Source: Candidatus Omnitrophota bacterium
GTDB taxonomy: Bacteria; Omnitrophota; Gorgyraeia; Gygaellales; Profunditerraquicolaceae
Reading direction: 5' to 3'
Assembly: GCA_041651115.1 (NCBI GenBank)
Contig: JBAZJY010000001.1
Coordinates: 389,165-453,164 of the forward strand
Length of the DNA stretch: 64,000 nt
The notes under the pieces were generated by a model. That model saw nothing but the letters and a program-made list of their open reading frames with translations, was not told the DNA's origin and searched no databases. Shown here one piece after another: positions 110 through 64,000 of the stretch; positions within the stretch are counted from its first letter, which is position 1; each line of letters starts with the position of its first letter. Both the position numbers and the translations under genes were made by a program.

Positions 110-1174
110 ATGATCAATATTGATTTTTATATGAAGGTTGCCGAATTAAAAAGAGAATTGATGAAAGGCCGCGCCCTGGACAAAAAATATGTAGTTGATA
201 AATTCGAGCAATTCCGCAGCAAGGATCCGGTAATCTACAATATCGAAACAACTAATGTCTGTAATATGCGCTGCGTAATGTGCGCGCGCACCACCAAAAT
301 GACGCGTCAGATGAATACTCTTGATATGGATATATATAAGCGCGTCGTTGAACAGATAAAGCCGTTCCCGCAAGACCTGTGGGCGAAATGGAAAAAGTTT
401 GTCGTTGACTATTACGGTATCCGGCCTGACGAAATGGGAGAAAACCATTTTTTCCTTTATGTCATTGCCAAGTCGATCGTCATGCATGGCTTTGGAGAAC
501 CGTTGCTTGATCCCAAGATTGCCGAACGGATCAGGTTTTTAAGCGAAAAAAATATTCCTTCGTATTTTAGTTGCAATCCTGCGAACATCCATATTGATAA
601 AGTACTGGAGATCTTCGAAAGCGGTCTGGATTATTTTAAGCTGTCCATTGACAGCGTAGATGACGACCGGCAAAGGAAAGTCCGCGGGGACGCTTCCGGA
701 TTTACCGGGAATTATAAAAAGATTATCCGCTTATTGGATGAGAAAAAAGAGCATGGCTATAAAACTACGGTTGTCCTGACCATGCTTAACTTAAATATCG
801 GCAATGCCGCGGAAGAATTTGAAAAATTAAAAAAGTTATTTGAAGGCCGCCCGGTATACCTGTATTTTAAATGCCCTGACAATCAGTGGTACAGGGGGAC
901 AAAGCAGGCTACCAAGGCAATACACTGGTTGGAATTTTGCCAGGCCCCGTGGTCTACCTTATCGATACAGGCAAACGGCGATATCTCTGCCTGCGGCGCG
1001 GAAGATTATAACGGAGAATTGATCGTTGGTAATGCGCAGCATGAAACATTGGCCGATGCCTGGAATAGCGGAAAATTCCGGAAATTCCGCGAAGATCATT
1101 TTAATGTAAACAAAGAGATAAAATGCGCCGAAGAATGTGATATGAGACTGATCGGCGAACTGGTAAAGAATTAA
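110..1174 (+). CDS. radical SAM / SPASM-domain protein (paralog of 26745..27689)
   Basis: CxxxCxxC motif (NVCNMRCVMC) and a C-terminal Cys-rich SPASM-like region (C..C..C, CAEEC). The ORF-track start at 29 is TTG. The ATG at 110 gives an N-terminal length matching the paralog at 26745. Confidence 0.7.
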   Translation: MINIDFYMKVAELKRELMKGRALDKKYVVDKFEQFRSKDPVIYNIETTNVCNMRCVMCARTTKMTRQMNTLDMDIYKRVVEQIKPFPQDLWAKWKKFVVDYYGIRPDEMGENHFFLYVIAKSIVMHGFGEPLLDPKIAERIRFLSEKNIPSYFSCNPANIHIDKVLEIFESGLDYFKLSIDSVDDDRQRKVRGDASGFTGNYKKIIRLLDEKKEHGYKTTVVLTMLNLNIGNAAEEFEKLKKLFEGRPVYLYFKCPDNQWYRGTKQATKAIHWLEFCQAPWSTLSIQANGDISACGAEDYNGELIVGNAQHETLADAWNSGKFRKFREDHFNVNKEIKCAEECDMRLIGELVKN

Positions 1175-1186
1175 GAGGAATATGTA

Positions 1187-1990
1187 ATGCGGCCATTAAA
1201 CGAATTAAAAAATCTGCGCGGCAGGGTAGCGATCGTCACCGGCGGAACAGGCCATGCCGGCTCCGCGATCGCCGAGGCCCTGGCCGAATCCGGGGCTGCG
1301 GTGGTTATTATCGGAAGGGATAAGCTTAAATGCAGGTATAAGGCTGAAGATATTTCCCGCCGGTTTCATGTTGCGGCTTTGCCGCTGGCCATTGATCTTG
1401 AAGATGAATATAAAATCCGGCAAATCAATAAAAAAGTCCTACGGGAATTTGGCCGCGTTGATATCCTGGTTAACTGCGCTGCTATATTAACGGATAGCAG
1501 GACAAATAAATTATTCGCTCCGTTTGAAGCGCAGGACACTATATCGTGGAGAAAGGCAATAGAAGTAAATTTAACCGCAGCTTTTGTCTTAACGCAAGCC
1601 TGTAGGGAGGTGCTGGAGTTATCCGGTAAAGGATCAGTGATTAACATCAGCTCTATTTACGGGATTTCCGGACCGGATATGCGGCTGTATAAAGGCACGA
1701 AAATGGGGAATTCTGCTGCCTATGCCGCCAGTAAAGGCGGATTGGTTCAATTAACGCGCTGGCTAGCCACAGTCTTGGCTCCCAGAGTGCGCGTGAACGC
1801 AATTTCTTCCGGCGGCATATTCAGGAATCAGGATAAGCGGTTTATTGACCGTTATGTTGCGCGTACTCCTCTTAGGCGGATGGCATCAGAAGAAGACTTG
1901 AAAGGTGCGGCAATATACCTGGCAAGCGATCTTTCGGCGTATGTTACCGGCCATAATCTTATCGTAGATGGCGGTTGGACAGTATGGTAA
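1187..1990 (+). CDS. SDR family NAD(P)-dependent oxidoreductase
   Basis: TGGTGHAGSAIA Rossmann motif and the YAASK (YxxxK) catalytic motif, with SD-like gagga upstream. The C-terminal 40 aa are about 85% identical to the SDR at 9853. Confidence 0.8.
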   Translation: MRPLNELKNLRGRVAIVTGGTGHAGSAIAEALAESGAAVVIIGRDKLKCRYKAEDISRRFHVAALPLAIDLEDEYKIRQINKKVLREFGRVDILVNCAAILTDSRTNKLFAPFEAQDTISWRKAIEVNLTAAFVLTQACREVLELSGKGSVINISSIYGISGPDMRLYKGTKMGNSAAYAASKGGLVQLTRWLATVLAPRVRVNAISSGGIFRNQDKRFIDRYVARTPLRRMASEEDLKGAAIYLASDLSAYVTGHNLIVDGGWTVW

Positions 1991-8151: not shown

Positions 8152-9146
8152 AGGCATTGGTCGTCGGATTAGGCAGTATTGGGGAAAGGCATATCAGGAA
8201 TCTAAAACTGATAAGCCCAGGCATACGGATCGCTGTCTTACGGCAACATGCAAAAACAGCATGTGCCGGGCAGTTGCAGCCGTTGATCAACCGTGTTTTT
8301 TCAAAAACCAACGACGCGGCTGCCTGGAACCCGGATATTACCTTGATAACCAATCCGGCTTCTTTGCACGTCAGGACCGCTTTGATTTTTGCAAAAGCCG
8401 GCAGCCATATTCTTATCGAAAAACCTTTTGCTTCTTCCTTAAGGGGAATACCGGAATTGATGTGCGAATGCCGCAAAAAGAACCTTGTCTTGATGATCGG
8501 TTATTGCCTGAGGTTTTTTCGGCCGATACAAATTCTAAAACAGGCCGTGGACAACGGATGTATCGGGCGCCTGATATCCATACATGCCAGGGTCGGACAA
8601 TACCTTCCGGATTGGCGGCCGCAAAAAGATTTTCGCAGCGGCGTAAGCGCTCAAAGCGGGCTTGGCGGCGGAGCAGTATTGGAATTAAGCCATGAGCTGG
8701 ATTATCTTAACTGGATTGCCGGGGAAGCTAAAGAAGTGACGGCAAAAATCGGCAGGCTTGGGGATTGGGATATTGACGTAGAGGATATTGCCGAGGCCGT
8801 GATCATTTTTAAAAACCGGGCAATCGGCAGCGTGCACATGGATATGCTGGACCGGGCGGCCAATCGTTCCTGCCGCATAATTGGCACTAAAGGCACGCTT
8901 GTATGGGATATGGAACAGGGAAACTGCGTTCGCCTTTATTCGTCGAGGACAGGTGCGTGGAGAGAACTGTTTTCCGGCCGGCAACTAGAGCGTAATGATG
9001 TGTTTATAAAAGAATTGAAGCATTTTATAAGGTGCGCCAGGTACGGCAAAAAACCGTTAGTAGATCCTACGGCAGGTTTACGCGCGCTAAAATTAGCCCT
9101 TGCCGTAAAACGTTCTGCAAAAGAAGGAAGAAGCGTGAGGCTATGA
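8148..9146 (+). CDS. Gfo/Idh/MocA family oxidoreductase
   Basis: The motifs VVGLGSIGERH and LIEKPFA are present. The start overlaps the upstream gene as ATGA. Confidence 0.8.
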   Translation: MKALVVGLGSIGERHIRNLKLISPGIRIAVLRQHAKTACAGQLQPLINRVFSKTNDAAAWNPDITLITNPASLHVRTALIFAKAGSHILIEKPFASSLRGIPELMCECRKKNLVLMIGYCLRFFRPIQILKQAVDNGCIGRLISIHARVGQYLPDWRPQKDFRSGVSAQSGLGGGAVLELSHELDYLNWIAGEAKEVTAKIGRLGDWDIDVEDIAEAVIIFKNRAIGSVHMDMLDRAANRSCRIIGTKGTLVWDMEQGNCVRLYSSRTGAWRELFSGRQLERNDVFIKELKHFIRCARYGKKPLVDPTAGLRALKLALAVKRSAKEGRSVRL

Positions 9147-9856
9147 AAAAACCGTTTATACTCGGCACAATTTTTGCGCGTGGCGGCTCCAAGGGCATAC
9201 CCGGGAAAAACTTAAAGCCGTTAGCCGGAAAGCCGCTTATTGCTTATGCAATAGAAGCCGGCCTTGGCATACCCTTGATTGACCGGCTGATTGTTTCCAC
9301 CGATGATGACAAGATAGCCGAGGTTAGCCGCCAATATGGGGCAGAAGTGCCGTTTATGCGGCCTGCTGAGCTGGCAGCAGATAATTCCCCGGAATTACTT
9401 TCCTGGAAGCACGCGCTTACCACTATGAAAAAAGATTTTGCATGCCGGGCGGATATCTTAGTCTCTCTTCCTGCCACGTCACCTTTGCGTTCCCGGGAGG
9501 ATATTATGCGTTGTATCAAGCTATTACTTGACAGCAAAGCGGATATCGTGGTTACCGTAAAGGAAGCCGAACGCAATCCATATTTTAATATGCTCACCAT
9601 GGATAAAGACAGCAATGCCCGGGTAGTTATTGCCGGAAAAAAGAAGATCGCTTGTCGCCAGGAGGCGCCGGTTGTGTATGATATGACCACGGTTGCCTAC
9701 GCAGCCCGCGTTCCCTATATACTTTCTGCTGCTTCAATAATGGAGGGCAGGGTAAAAGCGGTGGTAGTGCCCCGCGAAAGGGCGCTGGATATCGATACTT
9801 TGTTTGACTTTGAGCTTGCCGAATTCCTGGCAAGTAGAAAAAAGGAGAGGTCTTGA
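9143..9856 (+). CDS. neuA: acylneuraminate (nonulosonic acid) cytidylyltransferase, NeuA/LegF-like
   Basis: The GTIFARGGSKGIPGKN motif is diagnostic of the CMP-NeuAc synthetase family. The ORF-track start at 9032 is an upstream extension. The ATG at 9143 overlaps the upstream stop as ATGA. Confidence 0.8.
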   Translation: MKKPFILGTIFARGGSKGIPGKNLKPLAGKPLIAYAIEAGLGIPLIDRLIVSTDDDKIAEVSRQYGAEVPFMRPAELAADNSPELLSWKHALTTMKKDFACRADILVSLPATSPLRSREDIMRCIKLLLDSKADIVVTVKEAERNPYFNMLTMDKDSNARVVIAGKKKIACRQEAPVVYDMTTVAYAARVPYILSAASIMEGRVKAVVVPRERALDIDTLFDFELAEFLASRKKERS

Positions 9857-11324: not shown

Positions 11325-12335
11325 ATGAAAAGCTATCGTACCTTTATAATTGCCGAAGCAGGCGTTAATCATAATGGCAGCATTAGGATGGCAAAGAAAA
11401 TGATTGATGTGGCGGCAGCAGCCGGGGTTGATGCAGTGAAATTTCAGACTTTTCAGGCCGCACTGCTGGCAAGTAAATTCGCCCCTAAGGCAGAGTACCA
11501 GTTAAAAACCACGCAGCAGAACGAATCTCAGTTCCAAATGCTTAAAAAATTGGAATTAAGTGCGGGTGCCCATAAAGAATTGATCGCGCATTGCAAGAAA
11601 TCCGGCGTCATATTTCTTTCTACGCCATTTGATCTGGAGAGCATAGATTTACTTAATTCATTAGGCTTGATGATACTGAAAATCCCATCGGGAGAGATAA
11701 TCAATCTGCCGTATCTAAGAAAAATCGGAAGCCTGAAGAAAAAAATTATATTATCAACGGGCATGGCGGATTTATTCGAAGTAAAAAGGGCTTTGAGTAT
11801 CCTTATGCAAAGCGGCACCCCGAAGCAACAGATTACGGTTTTACATTGCCATACTGATTACCCCACTGCCTATAAAGACGTCAATTTGCTGGCTATGCTT
11901 TCCATAAAAAACAGATTTAAGATCAATATAGGTTATTCCGATCATACCCCGGGCATCGAAATAGCCATTGCTGCGGTCGCCTTGGGAGCGAAGGTAATAG
12001 AAAAGCATTTTACCCTTGACCGGACAATGAACGGCCCGGATCACAGAGCTTCCCTGGAACCTGATGAGCTGGCCGCCATGGTTGCGGCAATACGGAATTT
12101 GGAAAAGGCAATGGGTAACGGGATCAAGCGGCCTACGGCTTCCGAGATAAAGAATAAAACAGTAGCGCGTAAGAGCTTGATTGCGGCAAGATATATACAA
12201 AAAGGGGAGAAATTTACCGTGGGTAACCTGACTGTAAAACGCCCGGGCTTTGGCATAAGCCCAATGGACTGGGACCGCGTCCTTGGCAAAACCGCAAAAA
12301 AAGATTTTATGGCAGATGAATTGATTGCGCTATGA
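11325..12335 (+). CDS. neuB: N-acylneuraminate/legionaminate synthase family (NeuB/LegI-like)
   Basis: FIIAEAGVNHNGS and VKFQTF motifs at the N-terminus, plus a C-terminal SAF domain (VKRPGFGISP). Confidence 0.85.
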   Translation: MKSYRTFIIAEAGVNHNGSIRMAKKMIDVAAAAGVDAVKFQTFQAALLASKFAPKAEYQLKTTQQNESQFQMLKKLELSAGAHKELIAHCKKSGVIFLSTPFDLESIDLLNSLGLMILKIPSGEIINLPYLRKIGSLKKKIILSTGMADLFEVKRALSILMQSGTPKQQITVLHCHTDYPTAYKDVNLLAMLSIKNRFKINIGYSDHTPGIEIAIAAVALGAKVIEKHFTLDRTMNGPDHRASLEPDELAAMVAAIRNLEKAMGNGIKRPTASEIKNKTVARKSLIAARYIQKGEKFTVGNLTVKRPGFGISPMDWDRVLGKTAKKDFMADELIAL

Positions 12336-50513: not shown

Positions 50514-51077
50514 ATGGACTATTTTAAAGATCTCTCAGCGATGTTTTTAAAGATTGAGGCCACAGACGAAAGATCAAAAATACTGCCTTTTGGCTCAGCG
50601 ATCCAAAAAGTCATTGACTTGGTAACTTCCCGCGCTAAAACAGGAGGCAAGGTTATTTTTATCGGTAATGGCGGCAGCGCTTCGATTTCCAGCCACATGG
50701 CAACCGATTTTTTAAAAAACGGCAATATCCCCGCGTTAACTTTTAATGATCCCGCTTTCCTTACCTGTATCAGCAACGACCTTGGTTATGACCAGGTTTT
50801 CCGAAAACCTATAGAAGTGCTTGCCAAAAAAAGTGATATTCTGTTTTCCATCAGCAGTTCCGGGAAGTCAAAAAATATCACTGACGCAACCGAAGAAGCA
50901 AAAAATAAAGGCTGCCTAGTCATCACCCTTACCGGCTTTCATAAGGATAACCCCCTGCGGAAAATGGGAGATATAAATTTTTATGTTCCTTCCGGTTCCT
51001 ACGGTTACGTAGAAATCGCCCACCTTGCCGTATGCCACTTCATTATCGATGAAATAATCGCGAATAAAAATGGATAA
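50514..51077 (+). CDS. gmhA: SIS-domain phosphoheptose isomerase (GmhA-like)
   Basis: GKVIFIGNGGSASISSHMATDF matches the GmhA GNGGSAADAQH motif region. Length is 187 aa. Confidence 0.8.
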   Translation: MDYFKDLSAMFLKIEATDERSKILPFGSAIQKVIDLVTSRAKTGGKVIFIGNGGSASISSHMATDFLKNGNIPALTFNDPAFLTCISNDLGYDQVFRKPIEVLAKKSDILFSISSSGKSKNITDATEEAKNKGCLVITLTGFHKDNPLRKMGDINFYVPSGSYGYVEIAHLAVCHFIIDEIIANKNG

Positions 51078-52137
51078 ATTCAAGATCGACAGCCATAAGC
51101 TTATCTATCATACAGAGAGGGTCAATGACTGGCTAAGCGGGCGGAAGATTTATCCCGTATATATCGAAGTCTCTCCCAGCGGCTCATGCAATCATCGCTG
51201 CCTTTATTGCGCCCTGGATTTTATGGAATACCAACCGCGTTTTCTTGATAAAACTATATTTGAAAAAAGATTGTCGGAAATGGGCAGACTTGGGGTAAAA
51301 AGCATTATGTACGCGGGTGAGGGAGAGCCGTTCCTGCATAAGCATATTGCCGGAATAATCCGGCATACGAAAAATTCAGGTATCGATGCCGCAGTCACTA
51401 CAAACGGTGTCTTATTAAAAAGAGGCTTGGCTGAAGACATACTCCCCAGCCTCACCTGGGTCAAAGTAAGTATAAATGCCGGTACAAAAAAGACATATTC
51501 GCTTATCCACCGGACAATCCCGGATGATTTTAATACAGTAATGCGTAATATGGCTGATGCGGCAAAATTGAGGAAGAATAAGAAATACGCCTGCACTCTG
51601 GGGATGCAGATAGTCCTTTTGCCGGAAAATTACCGCGAAGTTGGCCTGCTGGCAAAAAAGGCCCGGGATATCGGAATGGATTATCTGGTCGTAAAACCGT
51701 ATTCCCAGCATCCGCTCAGCAATACGACAAGGTATAAAGATATCAAATATAGCCTGTATCTGGCGCTTGCGGAAAAATTACAGCGGCTTAACCGGGATAA
51801 TTTTAGCTTGATCTTCCGGCTGAACACGATGAAAAAATGGGATGCTGCAAAGCGCACGTACAAACATTGCCTGGCATTGCCGTTTTGGGCCTATATTGAC
51901 GCAGGGGGGGATGTCTGGGGATGCAGTATTTATTTAACAAAAGATAAGTTTTGCCTCGGGAATATCTACAAAAGCGATTTTAAGAAAATCTGGGGTTCCC
52001 TAAAAGCCAAACAGCTATGGAAATGGGCCGCAAATAAGCTCGATACCGGTAAATGCCGGGTAAATTGCCGTATGGATGAAATAAACAATTATCTCTGGGA
52101 GATAAAAAATCCCTCCGAACACGTAAACTTTATTTAA
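51070..52137 (+). CDS. radical SAM protein (SPASM/twitch-like C-terminus)
   Basis: SPSGSCNHRCLYCA is a CxxxCxxC motif. A C-terminal Cys cluster follows (WGCSIY...FCLGN...GKCRVNC). Confidence 0.7.
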   Translation: MDKFKIDSHKLIYHTERVNDWLSGRKIYPVYIEVSPSGSCNHRCLYCALDFMEYQPRFLDKTIFEKRLSEMGRLGVKSIMYAGEGEPFLHKHIAGIIRHTKNSGIDAAVTTNGVLLKRGLAEDILPSLTWVKVSINAGTKKTYSLIHRTIPDDFNTVMRNMADAAKLRKNKKYACTLGMQIVLLPENYREVGLLAKKARDIGMDYLVVKPYSQHPLSNTTRYKDIKYSLYLALAEKLQRLNRDNFSLIFRLNTMKKWDAAKRTYKHCLALPFWAYIDAGGDVWGCSIYLTKDKFCLGNIYKSDFKKIWGSLKAKQLWKWAANKLDTGKCRVNCRMDEINNYLWEIKNPSEHVNFI

Positions 52138-52138: not shown

Positions 52139-52972
52139 ATGCCGCCCCTTACAGGTATCACATTGAAAAAGAAGGCAGACGAGATCCGCCACAAAGTCAT
52201 AGAAGTGGCGATCAGAAATAAAGCCGGCCACATTGCTCCGTCGTTATCCGGCGTCGATATCCTCGTCGCTCTCTACTATAACGCGATGCAATATAAGCCT
52301 GCCGACCCTCATTGGGAGGCAAGAGACCGGATTATTTTTTCTAAGGCCCACGGCTGCTACGCGCTTTATGCGATCCTTGCCGATAAGGGCGTCCTACCGA
52401 AAAAAGAATGGGATGATTTTTATACCCCAAAAAGCACGCTTTTAGGCTGCATGGAATACCGGCCGGAATACGGGCTTGAGGCAGGGTGCGGCTCCCTGGG
52501 GCACGGCCTGCCTATTGCTGTCGGACTTGCTTTCGGCGCAAAATTGCAAAAGAAGAAATTCCATACTTATTGCATAATGGGCGATGGCGAAACGCAGGAA
52601 GGAACAACCTGGGAAGCGGTCCAGTTTGCCGTAAAGCATAAAATAAATAATCTTACCATCATCATAGATGATAACCGCCTCCAGGCAATGGATTTTATCA
52701 CTAAAATTCTCGATAGAGAAACTAAGGACAAGGTCAAAAGATTAAAGGGATTCGGGCTTTCGCCGATTATTTATAACGGTCACGATGTCATCGGGCTTAG
52801 CCGCCTACTCAAACCCGCGAAAAGGGCCGGCTCAGATGTCCCGCGGCTGATCATCGCCGAAACGATAAAAGGATATGGCCTCAAGTGTATGGAAAATGTC
52901 GCTAAATTCCATTTCCGCATACCTACGCCCGCAGAGCTCAAAAAGGGAAAGACATATGCCTGCAACCTGTAA
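52139..52972 (+). CDS. transketolase, N-terminal (ThDP-binding) subunit
   Basis: The ThDP-binding motifs GHIAPSLSGVDILVALYY, GSLGHGLPIAVGLA and the GDGETQEG motif are present. Length is 277 aa, as for split transketolases. Confidence 0.8.
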   Translation: MPPLTGITLKKKADEIRHKVIEVAIRNKAGHIAPSLSGVDILVALYYNAMQYKPADPHWEARDRIIFSKAHGCYALYAILADKGVLPKKEWDDFYTPKSTLLGCMEYRPEYGLEAGCGSLGHGLPIAVGLAFGAKLQKKKFHTYCIMGDGETQEGTTWEAVQFAVKHKINNLTIIIDDNRLQAMDFITKILDRETKDKVKRLKGFGLSPIIYNGHDVIGLSRLLKPAKRAGSDVPRLIIAETIKGYGLKCMENVAKFHFRIPTPAELKKGKTYACNL

Positions 52973-53450
52973 CTACAGAAAAGAGGTCGTCAACGCCATT
53001 CTGCCGTATTTCCGTCAAGATAAACGCTATTACCTGCTTGTCTGCGACATGGGTTTTGGCGTAATTGACCAGGTAAAAAAAGAGTTCCCGCGCCGCGTGA
53101 TTAACTGCGGCATCATGGAACAGGGTACAGTCGGGATCGCTGCAGGCATGAGCATGTCCGGGCTGATACCGGTGGTATATTCAATAGTAAATTTCCTTGT
53201 TTACCGTTCGCTGGAACAAATACGCAATGACGTTGTCCTGCAGGGCCTGAACGTTAAATTCATCTCTACCGGAGTAAACGATTACTTTAAATTCCTCGGG
53301 CCGTCGCATTGCTGCTGCCGTGACGATATCGCGCTGATGAAGTTGATACGAATGAAAGTCTATGACCCGTATGCCCGGCCCAAAACAAACCTCCATAAAA
53401 TGGCCGCGGAGTGGATAACGGATAAAAAAGCGGGTTACCTAAGGGTTTAA
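52956..53450 (+). CDS. transketolase C-terminal-subunit homolog, truncated (pyrimidine-binding domain only)
   Basis: MPATCNYRKEVVNAILPY...VCDMGFG...INCGIMEQGTVGIAAGMSMSG is collinear with the Transket_pyr domain. The protein ends after about 164 aa, so the ~110 aa Transketolase_C domain is absent. The ORF-track start at 52875 is an in-gene extension. Confidence 0.55.
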   Translation: MPATCNYRKEVVNAILPYFRQDKRYYLLVCDMGFGVIDQVKKEFPRRVINCGIMEQGTVGIAAGMSMSGLIPVVYSIVNFLVYRSLEQIRNDVVLQGLNVKFISTGVNDYFKFLGPSHCCCRDDIALMKLIRMKVYDPYARPKTNLHKMAAEWITDKKAGYLRV

Positions 53451-53457: not shown

Positions 53458-54243
53458 ATGACAGTCAAAAGCGGTAGTAATTTCGATATTTCTGTGATCA
53501 TGCCTTCGCTAAACGAAGAAAAGAATATCGCTGCCGCGCTTGAAAATACCCTGGCGGCGTTAGAAAAATTCAAGATCCGGGGGGAAGTAATCGCGATTGA
53601 TGACGGCTCAAGCGATCGAACCGCAGACCTGGTCAAGGCAGCCGCAAAAGATAATCCCGCGATCAGCCTGCTGAGCCACAGCCGGCCCCAAGGCATCGGA
53701 GCGTCGTTCTGGGACGGGGTAGCCAATGCTCGAGGCAATGCCATTGTCTTGATCCCGGGAGATAACGAATGCATACCGGAAGAAATCTTCCGATATTACG
53801 GTTTGCTCAAAGATGTTGACATGATCATACCTTTTGTATTAAACAAAGAAGTCCGCCCGCCTTTACGGTTATTACTTTCCTTTATCTATAAGCTGATCAT
53901 CAATTTTACTTTTTTTGTCAACTTTAATTATACCAACGGCACGATCATTTACAGAAAATCCGTCCTGGAGGATGCCGGCTCAAGAAATATGGGTTTTTTC
54001 TTCCAAACCGATATCCTTATCCGGGCGGTGAAGAAGGGCTATCTTTTTGCCGAAGTTCCTTATAGGCTGGGCAAAAGAAAAGCAGGGGACTCAAAGGCAT
54101 TTTCGCTGCGCTCCCTGCTTAATGTAATCAAAGGATATCTGCGCCTTACATTCGATTATTATTTCAAAAAACACCTGCACGATAAAAAGGGTTTTGCCCC
54201 GGATTCGGCGACCGCTATAAGGCGGTCGGCAAACAACCATTAA
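53458..54243 (+). CDS. GT2 polyprenyl-phosphate glycosyltransferase (DPM1/GtrB-like)
   Basis: ISVIMPSLNEEKNI...VIAIDDGSSDRT and the length (261 aa, with a C-terminal amphipathic region) fit the family. Confidence 0.7.
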   Translation: MTVKSGSNFDISVIMPSLNEEKNIAAALENTLAALEKFKIRGEVIAIDDGSSDRTADLVKAAAKDNPAISLLSHSRPQGIGASFWDGVANARGNAIVLIPGDNECIPEEIFRYYGLLKDVDMIIPFVLNKEVRPPLRLLLSFIYKLIINFTFFVNFNYTNGTIIYRKSVLEDAGSRNMGFFFQTDILIRAVKKGYLFAEVPYRLGKRKAGDSKAFSLRSLLNVIKGYLRLTFDYYFKKHLHDKKGFAPDSATAIRRSANNH

Positions 54244-57282: not shown

Positions 57283-58008
57283 ATGGAGCGCGGTAAAATA
57301 CAGACAGTGATCCTTTGCGGCGGCAAAGGGACAAGGATGGGCAGCGGCGAAATGCCGAAAGCCATGTTCACGATCGGCGGCAGGCCCCTGTTATGGCACA
57401 TAATGAGGATCTATTCTCATTATGGCTTTAACGAATTCATACTTTGCCTGGGCTACAAAGGAAATAAGATCAGGGACTATTTCTCAAGGATAAAAGAGTG
57501 GAAGATTAAATTCGCGGAAACCGGGCTGGATACCAATACCGGGGGTAGAATAAAAAAAGTCAAAAGCCTTGTCAGGGGAGAGGTGTTTTTTGCCACTTAC
57601 GGAGACGGACTTTCCAGTATAAACATAAACCAGCTGCTTAAATTCCACAAGGCTCACACGAGGACGGCAACCTTAACCGCGGTCCGGCCGTTTTCGCCTT
57701 TCGGCATTGTCGGCATAGACGCGCATTCCAATGCCGTAACACATTTTGAAGAAAAACCCATCCTTGACCATTGGATCAACGGAGGATTCTTTGTCTTTAA
57801 CCAGAAGATTTTTGATTATTTAAAAGAGGGCGATATACTGGAAAAAGATACTTTTCGCCGGGTGCTAAAGAATAACGGCCTGGCAGCATACAAGCACTAC
57901 GGTTTCTGGGAATGCATGGACACATATAAGGATAATCTAAGATTAAACCAACTCTGGGATAGCCAAAAGGCGCCTTGGGCGGCATGGAAAGGAAAGCTAA
58001 ATGAATAA
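57283..58008 (+). CDS. rfbF: glucose-1-phosphate cytidylyltransferase
   Basis: Collinear with Salmonella RfbF: [12 protein letters not shown]...[33 protein letters not shown], then [15 protein letters not shown]...[31 protein letters not shown]. Confidence 0.85.
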
Positions 58009-58987
58009 TTTCTGGAAAGACAGGCACGTCTTTATTACCGGCGCATCCGGCCTTTTGGGGGCCTGGCTGACAAAAGAACTTGTCGATAGGCGGGCGCGCG
58101 TGGTCAGCCTTATCCGGGATGACGTCCCAAATTCAAACCTTATCCACTTCGGGTTAATGGACAAAATCACCGTGGTAAGAGGGAATATCGAAGATTATCC
58201 GCTGATCAGCCGCGTCATCAATGAGTACGAAACCCAGACCGTGTTTCACCTTGCCGCGCAGACTATCGTTACGGTGGCAAACCACAGCCCGCTGTCTACG
58301 TTCGAGGCAAACATAAAGGGGACATGGAATATCCTGGAGGCCTGCCGCAACGGAAAATTCATAAAAGAGGTTATCGTATCCTCAAGCGATAAAGCGTATG
58401 GCGAGAAAGAAAAGCTGCCTTACTGCGAAGACGACCCGCTGATCGGCCGGCACCCTTATGACGTTTCCAAAAGTTGCGCGGATTTGATCTGTCAATCATA
58501 TTTTAAAACCTATAATCTTCCCGTATGCGTTACCCGCTGCGCGAACCTCTACGGCGGCGGAGACCTGAATTTCAGCCGCATCATACCGGGGACGATCCGC
58601 TCTGCAATGAACAACGAACCGCCAATCATCAGGAGCGACGGAAAATATATCCGGGATTATTTTTATGTAAAAGACGCTGTCGCGGCAATGCTGGCGCTTG
58701 CGGAAAAAATACAGGCAAAAAAACTACAGGGAGAAGCCTTTAATTTTTCCAGCGGCATACACGTCAATGTCCTGTCGCTGGTAAACCTGATCTTGAAAAT
58801 AATGGGCAAAAAAATAAAGCCGCGCGTGCTTAATAAAACAAAACACGAGATCAGGGACCAATACCTTTCCATCGATAAAGCAAAAAGGATGCTTGGCTGG
58901 AAGCCCGCATACAGCTTGGAAGACGGCCTGCGCGAAACAATCGAGTGGTACAAAAAATACCTAAAAATCCCCGGGAGGCATTTATGA
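58001..58987 (+). CDS. rfbG: CDP-glucose 4,6-dehydratase
   Basis: [25 protein letters not shown] matches the RfbG N-terminus NFWQGKRVFVTGHTGFKGSWLSLWL. An extended-SDR YxxxK (YDVSKSC) is present. Confidence 0.8.
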
Positions 58988-59433
58988 TTAATGATGTAGT
59001 AATTAAAGAACTTACCCAGATCCCCGACGAACGCGGCAAGATCATGCATATGCTGCGTAAAGACGACGATATTTTTGAAGAATTCGGCGAGATCTATTTT
59101 TCAATCGTCTATCCGGGGGCGATAAAAGGCTGGCACCTGCATAAAAAAATGACCTTGAATTACGCGGTAGTAAACGGAATGATCAAGCTTGTATTATATG
59201 ACGGCAGAAAAGGCTCCCCCACGTTTAACGAAGTCCAGGAAATCTTCATGGGGGACGAGAACTATGTCCTGGTTAAAATACCCGCGGGTATCACTAACGG
59301 TTTTAAAGGCATCGGCACAAAACCGGCGATCGTAGCCAATTGCGCTACCCTGGCGCACGATCCTCAAGAGATTATACGGATCGACCCGCTAAAGAACGAT
59401 ATCCCCTATGATTGGGAGCTGAAACATCGATGA
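58984..59433 (+). CDS. cupin-fold nucleotide-sugar 3,5-epimerase or 3,4-ketoisomerase (RmlC/FdtA-like)
   Basis: [13 protein letters not shown] matches the F.DeRG motif of dTDP/CDP-4-keto-6-deoxyhexose epimerases. Length is 149 aa. The ATG at 58984 overlaps the rfbG stop as ATGA. Confidence 0.6.
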
Positions 59434-60314
59434 ACCAGGCGCTTATTATCGGGGCATCCGGCCTGGTAGGAAATTACCTTCATAAATTGGCGCCTGCCGA
59501 TTATAGGGTTTCCGGGACATTCCGTAACTTTCCTTTGCCCGGGCTGCTTAAACTCGAGATCACCGATAAGAACGAAGTCAAAAGTTTAATCCTTGGCCTT
59601 AAGCCGCAAACCGTATTTTTGCCGGCAGCTTTTACGAATGTAGATATCTGTGAGGACGATCCGGGGTTATGCCATAAAGTCAACGTGGAAAGCATCCGCA
59701 ATATCGCGGATATTTTATCGGTTACAGGCGCAATGCCGGTTTATTTCTCTACGGACTATATCTTTGACGGCAGCAGCGGGCCTTACAGCGAAGTTGCTTC
59801 TCCGTGCCCGTTAGGCACTTACGGTAGATCAAAACTAGAAGCAGAAGAGGCCATAAAAAGAAATTTAAAAAACTACCTGATTATCAGGACTACCTGCGTA
59901 TATGGATGGGAGCATCAGGAAAAAAATTTTGTCGTCAACCTGATCAAAAAGGCAAAATCCGGGAAAATCATTGAAGTTCCGTCAGACCAGATCACTACGC
60001 CGACTTATGCGGGCCATTTGGCTTGCCTGACATGGGGACTGGTATCGGGAGGCGCCCAAGGGACATATAATGTCGCCGGCGCAACCTTGATGAGCCGTTT
60101 TGATTTTGCGCTTCTGGCTGCGGAAGTATTCGGATTGGATAAAAACCTTATAAAGCCGATTACAACTCAAGAGATGTCACGAAAGGCAAGGCGGCCGCTG
60201 AATGCCGGATTAAAAATAACCAAGATAAGCGAGGAATTAAAACGGGGGATCCCCGGTGCGGAAGAAGGGCTTAAGGAAATGAAAAAGGAAATGGGAAATG
60301 GCCGAACATTATAA
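59430..60314 (+). CDS. RmlD-like nucleotide-sugar 4-ketoreductase
   Basis: ALIIGASGLVGNYL, FSTDYIFDG and YGRSKLEAEE are collinear with RmlD. The ATGA-coupled ATG is at 59430. Confidence 0.65.
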   Translation: MNQALIIGASGLVGNYLHKLAPADYRVSGTFRNFPLPGLLKLEITDKNEVKSLILGLKPQTVFLPAAFTNVDICEDDPGLCHKVNVESIRNIADILSVTGAMPVYFSTDYIFDGSSGPYSEVASPCPLGTYGRSKLEAEEAIKRNLKNYLIIRTTCVYGWEHQEKNFVVNLIKKAKSGKIIEVPSDQITTPTYAGHLACLTWGLVSGGAQGTYNVAGATLMSRFDFALLAAEVFGLDKNLIKPITTQEMSRKARRPLNAGLKITKISEELKRGIPGAEEGLKEMKKEMGNGRTL

Positions 60315-61608
60315 ACAGGCAAGGATCAGAAAAAAGATATTCAAGCTGGTAAAAGATTTCTATCTCGCCGGAAAAAGCGCTGCGGATAACGGCAGGATAA
60401 ACTGCTCCGGCCGCGTGTATGACGAAAAAGAAATGATCTCCCTTGTTGACTCGGCACTGGAATTCTGGCTGACCAGCGGCAGGTTTACCAGGGAATTTGA
60501 AGCGGCATTTTCCAGTTTTCTCGGAATAAAACACAGTCTGCTTGTCAATTCCGGTTCATCCGCCAACTTATTGGCAATAGCTGCCCTGACTTCTCCTGAA
60601 CTAGGCAGAAAAAAGCTCTCGCCCGGAGATGAAGTTATCACTACGGCGGCTGCCTTCCCGACAACCGTTAACCCAATAGTGCAGAATCAACTGGTCCCTG
60701 TCTTTGTGGACGTAGAGCTGCCGACATACAATGTTGACGCCGGGGCATTAAAAAAAGCTATCTGCAGAAAAACAAAGGCAATTTTTATCGCCCATACCCT
60801 GGGCAACCCATTTAACATTAGAGAGGTCTCAAGGCTTGCCAAAAAACACGGGCTATTCCTGATTGAAGACGCCTGCGATGCGCTGGGATCAAAATACCAC
60901 AATAGGCTTACCGGCACATTCGGAGACATAAATACTTTCAGCTTTTATCCTGCCCATCATATAACTATGGGCGAAGGCGGGGCGGTAGTTACCGACAATA
61001 AAAAGCTAAAGATCATCCTGCAGTCGTTCCGGGATTGGGGAAGGGCATGCTGGTGCGAAACCGGGTTTGATAACTGCTGCGGCAAGAGATTCAAATGGCA
61101 GTTAGGAAAACTCCCCTATGGCTACGACCATAAATACACATACTCGCACTTAGGTTATAACCTTAAGGCAACGGATATGCAGGCGGCCATCGGCGTTGAA
61201 CAGCTAAAAAAACTTCCATATTTCATATCTAAACGGCAGCGCAATTTTGATTTACTCTACAAAGGCCTGAAGCAGTATTCCCGTTATTTAATCTTACCCG
61301 AGGCAACACCCGGCTCAACTCCCAGTTGGTTCGGCTTCCTGATTTCGGTGGCTAAAAACGCCGGATTTACCAAAAATGACCTCGTGGAATACCTGGAAAG
61401 AAACAAGATCGCCACGCGCATGCTTTTTGCCGGGAATATCACAAAACAGCCGGCGTATAAAAATGTCAGGTTCCGCGTATCCGGAACGCTCAGGGACACG
61501 GATTTTATCATGCAAAACGCATTCTGGATCGGGGTCTATCCGGCACTCGGAGACAATCAAATAAACTACGTCCTGGAAACCTTCAAGAGATTCTTTAAAA
61601 CCCGATAA
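60298..61608 (+). CDS. CDP-4-keto-6-deoxyglucose 3-dehydrase-like (DdhC/E1-type PMP enzyme with Fe-S motif)
   Basis: DegT fold with FSFYPAHHITMGEGG, where His-His replaces the PLP-Lys. About 32 aa downstream lies CWCETGFDNCC, which is C-x1-C-x7-C as reported for the E1 [2Fe-2S] site. Length is 436 aa. Confidence 0.7.
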   Translation: MAEHYKQARIRKKIFKLVKDFYLAGKSAADNGRINCSGRVYDEKEMISLVDSALEFWLTSGRFTREFEAAFSSFLGIKHSLLVNSGSSANLLAIAALTSPELGRKKLSPGDEVITTAAAFPTTVNPIVQNQLVPVFVDVELPTYNVDAGALKKAICRKTKAIFIAHTLGNPFNIREVSRLAKKHGLFLIEDACDALGSKYHNRLTGTFGDINTFSFYPAHHITMGEGGAVVTDNKKLKIILQSFRDWGRACWCETGFDNCCGKRFKWQLGKLPYGYDHKYTYSHLGYNLKATDMQAAIGVEQLKKLPYFISKRQRNFDLLYKGLKQYSRYLILPEATPGSTPSWFGFLISVAKNAGFTKNDLVEYLERNKIATRMLFAGNITKQPAYKNVRFRVSGTLRDTDFIMQNAFWIGVYPALGDNQINYVLETFKRFFKTR

Positions 61609-62645
61609 TGGCGCCATTAGTTTCAGTAATCATCGTAAACCATAACGGTATTGTTTTTGTTGATGGCTGCCTGAAATCAGTATTCGCCGGTAATTATCCC
61701 GCTTTAGAAGTGATTTTTGTCGACAACGGCTCAACTGACTCAAGCCTTGAATTCGTAAAAAATAATTTCGCATCAGATAGCCGATTAAAGATCGTAGAAA
61801 ACAAGGCGAGCCTGGGCCCTGCCGTCGGCAGGAACAGGGGGGCTGCGGTTGCCGCCGGTAAATATTTATTTTTTCTTGATAACGACACTAAAATAGATAA
61901 AAATTGCGTCGGCGAATTGGTAGATGCCCTGGAAAACAATATTTCAATCGGCGCCGCGCAAGCAAAATTACTAAAAATGGATTCGGGCGGCCTTTATGAC
62001 TGCGCAGGAGATTATTTGGGCCCGTTAGGTTTTTTGATCGAGCGCGCGCAGGGCGCAAAAGATAATGGCCAGTTTGATTTTATTTCCGATATTTTAAGCG
62101 CCAAATCCGCCGCAAGTATAATAAGAAAAGGGCTGTTTGACCAGATCGGCGGGTTTGACGAGAGTTATTACATGTATCTTGAAGAAACCGACCTTAGCTG
62201 GAGGGTATGGCTTGCCGGCTACCGCGTAGTATTTATTCCCGGGGCAGTCGTACAACATGCCTTCAATACCCCGAAAAAAGAATTTAAACGCTATTACACT
62301 AAATACATTGTCCGGTATTTTGGCTGCCGGAATTATATCACAACCCTGATAAAGAACCTCCAGCCGGGGAATCTCCTGAAAATCCTGCCGCTGCATGTTG
62401 CCTGTTGGCTGGCTTTAGCCTTATTGTTTATCATCAAGTTATCCCCTATGGACAGCCTGTATATTTTAAAAGGCATCGGCTGGAATATCCTGCATATAGG
62501 GTCCATTTTAAATAAGAAAGCGCGGATCAGCCGGGATATCCGTAAAAAAACCGATTCCCAGATCCTGCCAAAGATAATGGACAAAAGAAAGATTAATTAT
62601 TATTTCGGGAAGGGATTTGCCTATCTTACGGGCAGAAGCTATTAA
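61608..62645 (+). CDS. glycosyltransferase family 2 (with C-terminal membrane segment)
   Basis: VSVIIVNHNG...VIFVDNGSTDSS and a DND motif. The stop/start is TAATG. Confidence 0.75.
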   Translation: MAPLVSVIIVNHNGIVFVDGCLKSVFAGNYPALEVIFVDNGSTDSSLEFVKNNFASDSRLKIVENKASLGPAVGRNRGAAVAAGKYLFFLDNDTKIDKNCVGELVDALENNISIGAAQAKLLKMDSGGLYDCAGDYLGPLGFLIERAQGAKDNGQFDFISDILSAKSAASIIRKGLFDQIGGFDESYYMYLEETDLSWRVWLAGYRVVFIPGAVVQHAFNTPKKEFKRYYTKYIVRYFGCRNYITTLIKNLQPGNLLKILPLHVACWLALALLFIIKLSPMDSLYILKGIGWNILHIGSILNKKARISRDIRKKTDSQILPKIMDKRKINYYFGKGFAYLTGRSY

Positions 62646-62656
62646 ATACCTGCAAA

Positions 62657-64000
62657 ATGAAAATACTTTTCATTGTACCAAAAAATAAATCACTTTTTGG
62701 CGATAAAGGCAAGACCGTGCATCCGCATATCGGCATCGCCTACCTGTGCGCCTTCCTGAAAAACAACGGCATAGAAACGGCGGTATTCGATGACGGTGTT
62801 GAAAAAAGCTCAAGTGACGTGTTTAAAGCCATTAAAGAAATAGAACCGGATATCATCGGCGTCACGATTTTCAGTTATTGCTATGGATACGCGTATGAGC
62901 TGATAAAATTGATCAAGCAGCGCTCTAACCTGCCTATGGTCCTCGGAGGGCCGCATATCAGCACGGTAAAAGGAAAAATACTGGATGATACGTCCGTAGA
63001 ATTTGCCGTAAAGCATGAGGGTGAATTTACCCTGTTGGAACTTCTCCGCGAGTTGGATAAAAAAAATCCCGATTTTAGCAGTGTCGCCGGACTGATCTGG
63101 CGCGGAAAAGAAGGCAGGATAACGGAAAACATTGACCGGCCGCTGATCGAGGACTTAGACAGCCTGCCGATACCAGACTATGATATCTTCGGCATAGAGC
63201 GTTACGCCTGCTACCAGCAAAAAGCACTGCCGATCATCACTTCCCGCGGCTGTCCGTTTGGCTGCAATTACTGTTCAGTCAGACTGTCCATGGGCCAAAA
63301 GTTCCGGCCGCGCAGCGCGGAAAATGTCTTCACGGAAATAGAATATTTTTATCGCCGGGGCTGGCGGAGCTTTGACTTTAATGACGATTGTTTCACTTTA
63401 AGACAAGACCGCGCAGAGAGAATATGCGACATGATCATTGATAATAAACTGGACATTCGCTTCCAGCTCTATAATGGGATAAGGGTGGACACCGTGACCC
63501 CGGAACTTCTAAAAAAAATGAAGAAAGCAGGGTGCTATTTTATTTCCTTCGGCTGCGAAGCGGGGAATGATAAAGTATTAAAAGCGATAAAAAAGGGAAT
63601 AACCATTGAGCAGGTAAAAAATGCCGTAAACTGGGCGAATGCCGCGAAGATCAATAATTCCGTGAATTTTATCATCGGCCATAAAGAAGAAACCTATGCC
63701 GATGCCATGGATACGATAAATTTTGCCAGGCGCCTGCCGACAAATTTCGTCAACTTCTACAACCTTTTGCCGTATCCCGGCACCGAGTCGTTTGAATGGG
63801 CAAAACAGCACGCCAGTTTTCTGATCCCGCCGGATTCGATCCTGGAAAATATTTCTTACCGCGATAACAAACCGATATTTGAAACCAAGGAATTCACCAA
63901 AGAACAAAGGGAGAAAATCATCTCTCTGGGCTTTAAATTATACCGGAAAAAGATCCTCACCTTTAGGCTGGGAAAAGTGCTGGGAGGGCTGGTATACCTG
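62657..64000 (+). CDS. B12-binding domain radical SAM protein (3' end outside the window)
   Basis: The ATG at 62657 starts MKILFIVPKN. A B12-binding-like N-terminal domain is followed by a TSRGCPFGCNYC radical-SAM motif. The reading frame stays open to the window edge. Confidence 0.8.
   Translation, partial: MKILFIVPKNKSLFGDKGKTVHPHIGIAYLCAFLKNNGIETAVFDDGVEKSSSDVFKAIKEIEPDIIGVTIFSYCYGYAYELIKLIKQRSNLPMVLGGPHISTVKGKILDDTSVEFAVKHEGEFTLLELLRELDKKNPDFSSVAGLIWRGKEGRITENIDRPLIEDLDSLPIPDYDIFGIERYACYQQKALPIITSRGCPFGCNYCSVRLSMGQKFRPRSAENVFTEIEYFYRRGWRSFDFNDDCFTLRQDRAERICDMIIDNKLDIRFQLYNGIRVDTVTPELLKKMKKAGCYFISFGCEAGNDKVLKAIKKGITIEQVKNAVNWANAAKINNSVNFIIGHKEETYADAMDTINFARRLPTNFVNFYNLLPYPGTESFEWAKQHASFLIPPDSILENISYRDNKPIFETKEFTKEQREKIISLGFKLYRKKILTFRLGKVLGGLVYL

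Follow-up and report, generated by a model that had tools for sequence, protein, structure and literature searches.

Known radical SAM sugar enzymes and the Omnitrophota locus

Radical S-adenosylmethionine (SAM) chemistry on sugars has so far been known almost entirely from antibiotic pathways such as those for butirosin, desosamine, apramycin, and gentamicin. Here we analyze five radical SAM enzymes, rSAM-A to rSAM-E, encoded in a 64,000-nucleotide stretch from the genome of an uncultured Candidatus Omnitrophota bacterium (GenBank assembly GCA_041651115.1, contig JBAZJY010000001.1, positions 389,165 to 453,164 of the forward strand). This whole stretch is referred to as the window; positions count from its first nucleotide, and all genes in it are on the + strand. 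The window forms the core of a supercluster of more than 85 kb for surface-glycan biosynthesis that has a single transcription direction and carries several sugar-nucleotide cassettes. It appears to wire the enzyme classes of the antibiotic pathways into the formation of surface glycans built from ulosonic acids, heptose-like sugars, and dideoxyhexoses. A tailoring role on nucleotide-linked sugars or sugar acids that serve as intermediates of the surface glycan is, in our view, probable for all five enzymes.

BtrN, the 2-deoxy-scyllo-inosamine (DOIA) dehydrogenase of butirosin biosynthesis (PDB 4m7t), acts on a carbocycle made by a homolog of 3-dehydroquinate synthase (DHQS). rSAM-C resembles BtrN in both domains, has the identical spacing of auxiliary cysteines, and is encoded a few genes away from a DHQS-family enzyme. 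On the other hand, the similarity is distant, and the DHQS homolog is of the AroB type, not of the 2-deoxy-scyllo-inosose (DOI) synthase type. The rSAM-C cassette also includes a CMP-transferase and lies in a surface-glycan locus, not in an aminoglycoside cluster, and many members of the family are found near polyketide synthases (PKS).

The best sequence matches of rSAM-D are BlsE (1.7e-9), DesII (2e-4), MoaA, and viperin, its best fold matches are DesII, BlsE, and viperin, and its gene sits between genes for making and for using nucleotide-activated sugars. It differs from DesII and BlsE in having a four-cysteine auxiliary domain and in scoring far below the cutoffs of both families. Neither the desosamine nor the blasticidin pathway is known to contain an equivalent of its cassette, which combines HldE-like and GmhA-like proteins, a split thiamine diphosphate (ThDP) enzyme, and a family 2 glycosyltransferase (GT2).

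AprD4 and AprD3 are the radical SAM diol dehydratase and the NADPH-dependent reductase that together carry out C3' deoxygenation in apramycin biosynthesis. Among solved proteins, rSAM-B matches AprD4 best (3e-13), and for rSAM-E this enzyme comes second (1e-15). The arrangement of a radical SAM gene beside a short-chain dehydrogenase (SDR) gene recurs twice in the window (rSAM-A with SDR1, and SDR3 with rSAM-B), a candidate parallel in arrangement to the AprD4/AprD3 partnership. However, rSAM-B and rSAM-E fall far below the AprD4 cutoff in NCBIfam. Both share the B12-binding plus radical SAM architecture of MgmA and of the class B C-methyltransferases GenK, GenD1, Fom3, and MoeK5, and rSAM-E also matches MgmA, CysS, TokK, and OxsB. 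They differ from these enzymes in that they reach no curated model and belong to large uncharacterized clades, and in that they would be expected to act on surface-glycan precursors rather than antibiotics. The substrates of class B enzymes include carbohydrates (PMC12931638).

Related loci are carried by cultured anaerobes. Plasmid pBHWA1 of Brachyspira hyodysenteriae (L173, NC_012226.1) has seven radical SAM/SPASM genes, five of them in a row, among rfbABCD, rfbF, epimerase, and glycosyltransferase genes. Part of this block correlates with virulence in a study that assigned no function to it (La et al., 2014; PMC4267127). Plasmid pDCAR1 of Solidesulfovibrio carbinolicus DSM 3852 (L172, NZ_CP026539.1:67846-96907) encodes four radical SAM enzymes, namely a homolog 56% identical to rSAM-D and three enzymes of class B. 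Neighbors of the rSAM-D homolog are genes for an HldE-like protein, a SIS-family protein, a short NeuB, two cytidylyltransferases, and a split transketolase. Both plasmids and the window represent the same phenomenon, radical SAM-rich glycan loci in anaerobes. The differences are that the pBHWA1 enzymes are just 21-29% identical to rSAM-A, rSAM-C, and rSAM-D, and that both plasmids are without the cassettes of rSAM-A and rSAM-C. Plasmids of Lawsonia intracellularis also gave matches. A preprint on Omnitrophota describes polysaccharide cassettes as hypervariable regions and claims no link between radical SAM enzymes and glycans.

Five radical SAM enzymes in one glycan locus

A regular-expression scan of every + strand open reading frame (ORF) in the window found the CxxxCxxC motif in exactly five proteins: rSAM-A (110-1174, CNMRCVMC), rSAM-B (23151-24671, CPFTCAFC), rSAM-C (26745-27689, CNASCVMC), rSAM-D (51070-52137, CNHRCLYC), and rSAM-E (62657 to the window end at 64000, CPFGCNYC). 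A reading made from the sequence alone, before any database search (the sequence-only reading), had placed five radical SAM enzymes of two structural classes at these sites, and the Pfam results agree. All five exceed the gathering score of Radical_SAM (PF04055, 29.5 bits), with 60.1, 65.9, 50.5, 60.2, and 92.0 bits from A to E. rSAM-A, rSAM-C, and rSAM-D also pass the SPASM threshold (PF13186; 48.5 bits for rSAM-A). rSAM-B (44.1 bits) and rSAM-E (58.4 bits) pass that of B12-binding (PF02310, 32.1 bits), giving them the class B architecture.

The three-cysteine SAM-cluster motif, present in all five, is invariant in 100-120 homologs each of rSAM-A, rSAM-C, and rSAM-D and conserved in the rSAM-B clade. 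Pfam scans found no sixth radical SAM enzyme among the remaining window genes; the gene at 61608-62645, outside the direct scans, has precomputed Pfam matches to GT2. All five are real radical SAM enzymes and integral members of the glycan locus. rSAM-C and rSAM-D have 100% identical counterparts on a 647-kb contig of an NCBI MAG (metagenome-assembled genome) labeled "Candidatus Omnitrophota bacterium".

The identification of the window as a glycan locus, made in the same reading, holds on its Pfam and NCBIfam gene content. Pfam recognizes some ten glycosyltransferases together with a Bac_transf priming transferase, a Wzy_C protein, and an ATP-binding cassette (ABC) exporter, and the presence of the Bac_transf and Wzy_C assembly machinery indicates that the products are surface glycans.

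The window contains ~61 ORFs at a GC content near 0.46, and intergenic space is near nil (widest gap, 171 nt, at 43770-43941). Every radical SAM gene abuts or overlaps a sugar-pathway gene, so there is no space for precursor-peptide ORFs. Five radical SAM genes among 61 would be reached or exceeded by chance with binomial probabilities of 4e-4, 7.5e-3, and 0.036 if such genes made up an assumed 1%, 2%, or 3% of all genes, respectively. A stronger case than the binomial one for a non-chance density comes from the synteny of the cassettes described below.

The density had been called unusual, and five of ~61 genes is high, but only in relative terms, because loci of this class are similarly rich. 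The window has 0.78 radical SAM genes per 10 kb, and rSAM-D-type loci have 0.85 extra ones per 10 kb; the loci of the rSAM-C family, mostly non-glycan, have 0.09 extra per 10 kb. Among the 23 rSAM-D loci of at least 15 kb, 21 carry two or more radical SAM ORFs and 12 carry three or more. To our knowledge, it is true of textbook enterobacterial O-antigen and capsule loci that they rarely encode even one radical SAM enzyme. As a statement on ordinary loci in general it goes too far, because it fails for the present class of anaerobe loci, which have 2-5 per ~20 kb, with the seven of pBHWA1 as a further case. The density in the window is therefore typical of a recurrent, uncharacterized locus class in anaerobes, not unique to it. 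In other Omnitrophota metagenome-assembled genomes (MAGs), two loci around rSAM-C homologs (L006 and L012) combine several class B radical SAM genes with genes for a CMP-transferase, a NeuB-like protein, and an MsbA-like ABC exporter.

Auxiliary clusters and subfamily placement

rSAM-A, rSAM-C, and rSAM-D had been described as SPASM- or twitch-like. Each of the three families conserves just four C-terminal cysteines, so the seven-cysteine SPASM signature, indicative of two auxiliary clusters, is absent despite the PF13186 match, and it is the twitch half of the description that stands. The four are Cys277, 295, 339, and 343 in family A (CX17C-X43-CX3C), Cys244, 262, 307, and 310 in family C (CX17C-X44-CX2C), and Cys267, 285, 329, and 333 in family D (CX17C-X43-CX3C). 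Those of rSAM-C all align with the auxiliary cysteines of BtrN at the same spacing, as expected of a BtrN-type twitch domain. For rSAM-A and rSAM-D, the pattern is analogous to that of BtrN by spacing and is conserved in 99-100% of 120 homologs, the residue-level alignment to BtrN having been made for rSAM-C.

The same cysteine alignments, which had been proposed as a check, retain the SAM-cluster triad in all five enzymes (Cys51/55/58 in rSAM-A, Cys45/49/52 in rSAM-C, Cys40/44/47 in rSAM-D) along with the four auxiliary ligands in each of A, C, and D. They also reveal one extra invariant cysteine in the core of rSAM-A (Cys155) and of rSAM-D (Cys175). As judged from these alignments, rSAM-A, rSAM-C, and rSAM-D are four-cysteine twitch enzymes predicted to hold the SAM cluster and one auxiliary [4Fe-4S] cluster.

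By sequence, the nearest solved proteins are BtrN (auxiliary domain only) and TYW1 for rSAM-A; AprD4, TokK, and TsrM for rSAM-B; BtrN and BlsE for rSAM-C; BlsE, DesII, MoaA, and viperin for rSAM-D; and MgmA (9ccb, 7e-19), AprD4, CysS, TokK, and OxsB for rSAM-E. These relatives are largely enzymes that act on sugars or nucleotides (BtrN, BlsE, DesII, AprD4, MoaA). The rSAM-C family profile matches BtrN over both domains (3.9e-24, 88.5 bits), with all four auxiliary cysteines aligned. Orthology of rSAM-C to the DOIA dehydrogenase BtrN was considered and rejected, because the profile score is just 88.5 bits and the neighboring cyclase is of the AroB type and not a DOI synthase.

AlphaFold2 models were good for rSAM-A (pLDDT 81.6) and poor for rSAM-D (pLDDT 61). 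With Foldseek, DesII came first for both; BlsE ranked third for rSAM-A and seventh for rSAM-D, and viperin was also among the best matches of rSAM-D. These fold matches are consistent with a twitch/SPASM fold and do not discriminate between substrate classes.

No NCBIfam model is matched at its curated cutoff by any of the five, be it for a sugar, class B, peptide-maturase, or cofactor family. For class B, the methyltransferase models of PhpK, HpnR, KedN5, the TsrM type, and the C-methyltransferases of peptides that are ribosomally made and post-translationally modified (RiPPs) have cutoffs of 281-700 bits, and the top scores were 122 bits for PhpK (rSAM-E), 99 for rSAM_ocin_1, 90 for HpnR, and 80 for KedN5. 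rSAM-B and rSAM-E are 25% identical to each other. The uncharacterized clade of rSAM-B comprises 1942 clusters at 50% identity (E<=1e-30). rSAM-E is cut by the window end and is 481 aa at full length on an overlapping Logan contig (L167, 11050-12495). rSAM-B lies within the cassette of rSAM-C, and rSAM-E beside a CDP-dideoxyhexose-like module.

Three conserved cassettes

rSAM-A, rSAM-C, and rSAM-D are each the signature gene of a separate conserved cassette spread by horizontal transfer. The three families have thousands of homologs in uncultured bacteria and DPANN archaea, and none has been characterized. What the cassettes make would be new monosaccharides, carried on the cell surfaces of organisms whose lifestyle is believed to depend on cell-cell attachment. 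They are concrete, clonable targets, and the cultured carriers S. carbinolicus (pDCAR1) and B. hyodysenteriae (pBHWA1) make the question testable.

Cassette D is the most widely sampled. It opens with an NAD-dependent epimerase/dehydratase (47981..48973), which is 66-71% identical and syntenic in six other loci (L084, L085, L088, L106, L109, and L113). Next is an HldE-like bifunctional protein (48977..50512) with an N-terminal nucleotidyltransferase domain (Pfam CTP_transf_like, residues 33-157) and a C-terminal PfkB kinase domain (residues 196-496), the reverse of the domain order in E. coli HldE. Its NCBIfam rfaE domain scores are well under the heptose-specific cutoffs, which leaves room for a substrate other than heptose. 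A GmhA-like SIS sugar-phosphate isomerase (50514..51077; Pfam SIS_2; NCBIfam gmhA 108 bits, cutoff 209) precedes rSAM-D (51070..52137, 355 aa); a phosphatase of the GmhB type did not appear among the cassette genes. Then comes a split minimal ThDP enzyme (52139..53450; Pfam Transketolase_N and Transket_pyr), made up of a transketolase N-terminal (PP) subunit (TktN) and a short pyrimidine-binding subunit (TktC) of ~164-190 aa that lacks the C-terminal domain. The short form is kept with rSAM-D in many loci, which suggests a dedicated two-carbon transfer or branching step and not a housekeeping transketolase. A small GT2 glycosyltransferase of 261 aa (53458..54243; Pfam Glycos_transf_2) closes the cassette.

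The rSAM-D family has 4714 matches at E<=1e-10, of which the top 120 share 64-100% identity and, with few exceptions, have a length of exactly 355 aa. We compared 83 rSAM-D loci, consisting of three long contigs and 80 metagenome loci, many of them on contigs too short to show neighbors. The recurrent order is epimerase, HldE-like, GmhA-like, rSAM-D, TktN, short TktC, and a 258-aa GT2, with partner identities of 55-75%. Partners were counted in 44 of the 83 loci for HldE-like, 43 for GmhA-like, 38 for TktN, 32 for TktC, 27 for GT2 (median identity 54.5%), and 25 for the epimerase; other frequent neighbors are a second, D-related radical SAM gene and class B radical SAM genes. Cassette D looks like a pathway for a heptose-like or higher-carbon sugar. 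Two other identities were rejected on NCBIfam scores, namely MoaA ("GTP 3',8-cyclase", the JGI label on some rSAM-D homologs) and the tungsten-cofactor maturase.

Cassette A is marked by rSAM-A (110..1174, 354 aa), at the left edge of the window, in which Pfam recognizes a radical SAM domain and the four-cysteine, twitch-type domain. When the N-termini of 20 homologs are aligned, they support its start at 110, and all of its cluster cysteines and Cys155 are conserved in 120 family members. The family has 1414 matches at E<=1e-10 (identity 51-63%) in Elusimicrobia, Chloroflexi, Planctomycetes, Parcubacteria, Woesearchaeota, and Nanoarchaeota; no plasmid homolog was found. SDR1 (1187..1990; Pfam adh_short_C2) starts 12 nt 3' of rSAM-A. 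An SDR gene likewise adjoins the rSAM-A homolog in an Elusimicrobia locus (L169) and a Woesearchaeota locus (L170), at 34% identity. In both, the rSAM-A homolog occurs with the SDR and with genes for a CMP-transferase-HAD phosphatase fusion and a short NeuB-like synthase; one or two class B radical SAM genes also belong to the set. The CMP-ulosonate-type cytidylyltransferase 1 of the window (9032..9856; Pfam CTP_transf_3) is 29-41% identical to the cytidylyltransferases of these two loci and is the best window match to the CMP-transferase-HAD fusions of rSAM-A cassettes. Immediately upstream of rSAM-A, the source genome has a NeuB/CMP-transferase fusion and an AsnB-like gene, and SDR1 follows directly downstream. 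Together, rSAM-A, the NeuB-like synthase, the CMP-transferase, and the SDR look like a pathway for a modified 2-ulosonic acid.

Cassette C starts with CMP-transferase 2 (20601..21266; Pfam CTP_transf_3), found at the same position and 62-80% identical in three other loci (L004, L007, and L171). Next is an AroB-type DHQS homolog (21276..22415), which scores 310.9 bits against NCBIfam aroB (TIGR01357), above the cutoff of 305. Its best PDB matches are true DHQS enzymes (3e-58, vs. 2e-29 for DOI synthase, with DOI synthases and sedoheptulose cyclases at 1e-23 to 2e-29). The blocks GGGVxGD, DSSxGGK, EIIK, R..LNLGHTxGHAIE, HGE, and RDKK, which we take to be active-site motifs, align with the DHQS of Vibrio cholerae. 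The protein is 54-60% identical to its counterparts in the three loci. SDR3 (22412..23179; Pfam adh_short_C2, 220 bits) follows, with 64-69% identity to its counterparts. The placement of the AroB-type protein between a CMP-ulosonate-type cytidylyltransferase and an SDR is kept in all three other loci, which belong to different phyla.

The second half of the cassette is formed by rSAM-B (23151..24671, 506 aa; Pfam B12-binding-like and radical SAM domains), whose slot in L004 and L171 is taken by a class B enzyme of another subclade, an unknown protein of 691 aa (24673..26748), rSAM-C (26745..27689, 314 aa; recognized by Pfam and by its family profile as a BtrN-like twitch radical SAM enzyme), the class I SAM methyltransferase MT1 (27662..28426; Pfam Methyltransf_11; 54-62% identical in L004 and L171), and an unknown protein of 625 aa (28404..30281). 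The 691-aa protein has no Pfam, NCBIfam, or PDB match, and its sole true homolog found, 33% identical, is on the L171 contig. A recurrence of the pair of rSAM-B and the 691-aa protein in L084 was rejected, because the 692-aa protein there proved unrelated by BLAST. The 625-aa protein is a putative transferase with weak NCBIfam matches to two surface-carbohydrate families (TIGR04326, TIGR04396) and to the BFO_1060 family of glycosyltransferases, and its counterparts in L004, L007, and L171 lie directly 3' of rSAM-C (40-44% identity). The two unknown proteins are mutually non-homologous, and neither has a PDB sequence match.

The nearest rSAM-C homologs with known context are 53-61% identical and were found in two MAGs, one of Deltaproteobacteria and one of Nitrospiraceae, and on one metagenome contig. 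In each of the three, the gene order is again CMP-transferase, AroB-like, SDR, usually a class B radical SAM gene, methyltransferase, rSAM-C, and a protein of ~600 aa. Cassette C is conserved across four loci that represent three phyla or metagenomes, and its partner identities are 40-80%.

A speculative and rather improbable product for cassette C would be a quinate-like carbocyclic "carba-ulosonic acid" that is radically oxidized, methylated, activated as a CMP ester, and attached to the surface glycan; MT1 would then be an O-methyltransferase. Dehydroquinate carries a hydroxyl and a carboxylate on one ring carbon and therefore resembles a 3-deoxy-2-ulosonic acid with the ring oxygen swapped for carbon. 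If this were true, the organism would have a carbasugar in a bacterial surface polysaccharide, and a BtrN-like enzyme would act on a cyclitol from a DHQS homolog, in parallel to the role of BtrN in making aminoglycosides.

Proposed chemistry and competing explanations

Enzyme class, cluster cysteines, and cassette conservation are established for the window, and from these we infer substrates and reaction types. The idea of radical sugar tailoring, put forward in the sequence-only reading, gains from the context, since rSAM-A, rSAM-C, and rSAM-D sit in conserved sugar-nucleotide cassettes; the specific chemistries that it named are kept here as predictions. Each enzyme would reductively cleave SAM, and the 5'-deoxyadenosyl radical would take hydrogen from an unactivated C-H bond of a nucleotide-linked sugar or sugar acid. 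The substrate radical might then be oxidized via the auxiliary cluster in a BtrN-type dehydrogenation, an outcome that would be likeliest for rSAM-C. In rSAM-A and rSAM-D, a neighboring leaving group might be lost in a dehydration of the DesII/AprD4 type, followed by reduction by an adjacent SDR. Alternatively, in these two enzymes the radical might be re-quenched from the opposite face, resulting in epimerization, for which the extra invariant cysteine (Cys155 or Cys175) could donate the hydrogen. rSAM-B and rSAM-E would most plausibly methylate unactivated carbons.

Several points weigh against assigning the five enzymes to sugar tailoring. The functions proposed for them are predictions from sequence and gene context. 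Assignment by hidden Markov models to the GenK/Fom3, BtrN, DesII, and AprD4 families, the check suggested for the earlier proposal, failed, all scores being far below the curated cutoffs. rSAM-D has 29.8 bits for DesII (TIGR04426, cutoff 450) and 44.3 for BlsE (TIGR04466, cutoff 400), for which rSAM-C has 34, and rSAM-B and rSAM-E have 59.7 and 74.2 for AprD4 (NF033070, cutoff 500). The Foldseek matches have TM scores of ~0.5, and for rSAM-A two peptide maturases, SuiB and SkfB, come close to DesII in rank. MgmA (9ccb), the top solved match of rSAM-E, is a protein methylase (PMC11796369). AprD4 and ArsL carry a similar B12-like domain yet bind no cobalamin (PMC12931638), so a match to the B12-binding Pfam family is by itself no proof that rSAM-B and rSAM-E use cobalamin. 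Literature searches for radical SAM enzymes together with nonulosonic acids or NeuB/cytidylyltransferase returned nothing relevant, nor did searches for radical SAM enzymes with transketolase and heptose.

Further points of this kind come from the rSAM-C family. Most of its members at ~49% (48-51%) identity to rSAM-C adjoin genes for a PKS, a fatty-acyl-AMP ligase (FAAL), a phosphopantetheinyl transferase (PPTase), an 8-amino-7-oxononanoate synthase (AONS)-like protein, and ABC-2 proteins, and the second-best solved relative of the family profile is the lipid enzyme GDGT-MAS (5e-10). These neighbors and this similarity indicate that the rSAM-C family is not intrinsically sugar-specific. They would fit radical SAM enzymes that tailor not the sugar ring carbons but a non-sugar part of the finished glycoconjugate (the N-acyl group of a nonulosonic acid, a lipid anchor, or an alkyl chain), or that serve a separate lipid or polyketide. 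Class B also includes hopanoid and lipid methylases, which are among the partial NCBIfam matches of rSAM-B and rSAM-E. However, Pfam found no PKS, FAAL, or acyl-carrier genes in the window, the rSAM-C homologs closest to that of the window all lie in the CMP-transferase/AroB-like/SDR cassette, and rSAM-A and rSAM-D co-occur with sugar-phosphate and nucleotidyl-transfer enzymes across phyla. We therefore regard a lipid or acyl target as unlikely.

Cassette C was also considered as the general context of the rSAM-C family, and this was rejected, as only two to three of 40 long genome loci have the cassette and most have the PKS/FAAL/ABC-2 set. That neighborhood comprises a PKS of ~1500 aa, FAAL, PPTase, AONS-like, an ABC-2 exporter, and a protein of ~355 aa (e.g., L028:2-4552, L036, L044, and ~40 other loci), and its hosts are mainly Desulfobacterota, with Planctomycetota and NC10. 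It looks like an uncharacterized lipid or polyketide pathway with a BtrN-like radical SAM enzyme.

We find it very improbable that the five enzymes mature peptides or proteins, whether in RiPP biosynthesis, in the modification of a glycosylated surface protein, or in cofactor maturation for a neighboring enzyme. The protein-methylating activity of MgmA and the high fold ranks of SuiB and SkfB would agree with such a role, as would partial NCBIfam similarity to the tungsten-cofactor maturase TIGR04317 (72-126 bits), ApyD (199 bits, rSAM-E), PqqE (27-33 bits), AlbA, and sactipeptide maturases. However, these scores are far short of the cutoffs (380 for TIGR04317, 750 for ApyD, 381 for PqqE). Across the peptide and cofactor maturase models searched (ApyD, PqqE, AlbA, sactipeptide, ranthipeptide, tungsten-cofactor maturase, and MoaA, the last at 55-59 bits against cutoffs of 231-325), none was matched at its cutoff. 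The earlier proposal had named classification as peptide maturases as its refutation, and none of the five falls into that class. A seven-cysteine SPASM domain is typical of most peptide maturases, whereas rSAM-A, rSAM-C, and rSAM-D have the four-cysteine twitch form. No gap beside any of the radical SAM genes is big enough for a precursor gene, Pfam scans found no peptidase, RRE-type, leader-peptide-export, tungsten, or sulfatase genes in the window, and the conserved neighbors are sugar enzymes.

An incidental co-location, in which five housekeeping genes of a radical SAM-rich anaerobe ended up by chance within an operon-like region of great length, is hardly credible: the chance of ~0.04 for at least five of 61 at an assumed 3% share would allow it, but rSAM-A, rSAM-C, and rSAM-D keep the same sugar-gene neighbors in distant lineages, a synteny that largely refutes it, and no housekeeping family (MoaA, MiaB, HemN-type, lipoyl synthase) was matched at cutoff.

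Other parts of the region

Between cassettes A and C lies a nonulosonic acid module of the legionaminic acid type (11325..20589; Pfam and NCBIfam), encoding NeuB, a hydrolyzing 2-epimerase, a HisF/HisH/WbuX amidotransferase trio, PtmE-like, LegB-like, and LegC proteins, and an unknown 350-aa protein. WbuX (363 bits, cutoff 203) and LegC (452.7 bits, cutoff 420) exceed their NCBIfam cutoffs, and LegB-like (438 bits) is just short of its cutoff of 475; NeuB has 327.6 bits and Epimerase_2 305 bits in Pfam. LegC, a NeuB-type synthase, the hydrolyzing 2-epimerase, and a LegB dehydratase place the module in the legionaminic acid pathway. By Pfam, the window also encodes two CMP-ulosonate-type cytidylyltransferases, those of cassettes A and C, and a GDP-mannose 4,6-dehydratase with an aminotransferase. 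The priming phosphoglycosyl transferase (Bac_transf, 230 bits) and the Wzy_C-family ligase/polymerase (70 bits) are at 37923..40565 (Pfam).

Directly upstream of rSAM-E is a CDP-3,6-dideoxyhexose-like module (57283..62645; NCBIfam and Pfam) of RfbF-like, CDP-glucose 4,6-dehydratase-like, 3,5-epimerase-like, RmlD-like, and RfbH proteins plus a GT2. RfbH, the E1 dehydrase, is clear (689.8 bits vs. a cutoff of 423), but an E3 reductase of the RfbI/AscD type to go with the module genes at 57283-61608 was not recognized within the window. G1P_cyt_trans (241.8 bits), CDP_4_6_dhtase (210), and rmlD (206.5) are below their NCBIfam cutoffs.

Overlapping contigs show that the surface-glycan region runs on past both window ends. 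Upstream there are two further NeuB homologs, each fused to other domains. On L168, one is fused to a UDP-galactopyranose-mutase/amine-oxidase-like flavoprotein (1727-4120, 797 aa) and the other to a CMP-transferase (5198-6949, 583 aa), both just upstream of the window. With the window included, this brings the region to three NeuB homologs and four CTP_transf_3 domains (CMP-transferases). Downstream there are more glycosyltransferases and methyltransferases and one carbamoyltransferase.

GC skew is positive across the first ~30 kb of the window and then near zero, a shift that may be a sign of differently derived blocks meeting there. At 6190-9146, three genes for Gfo/Idh/MocA-family oxidoreductases lie in series after a weak GT2-like gene and the ABC exporter. 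An ABC exporter beside a radical SAM gene recurs in the window (3293-5128), in L006 and L012, and in the rSAM-D locus L085.

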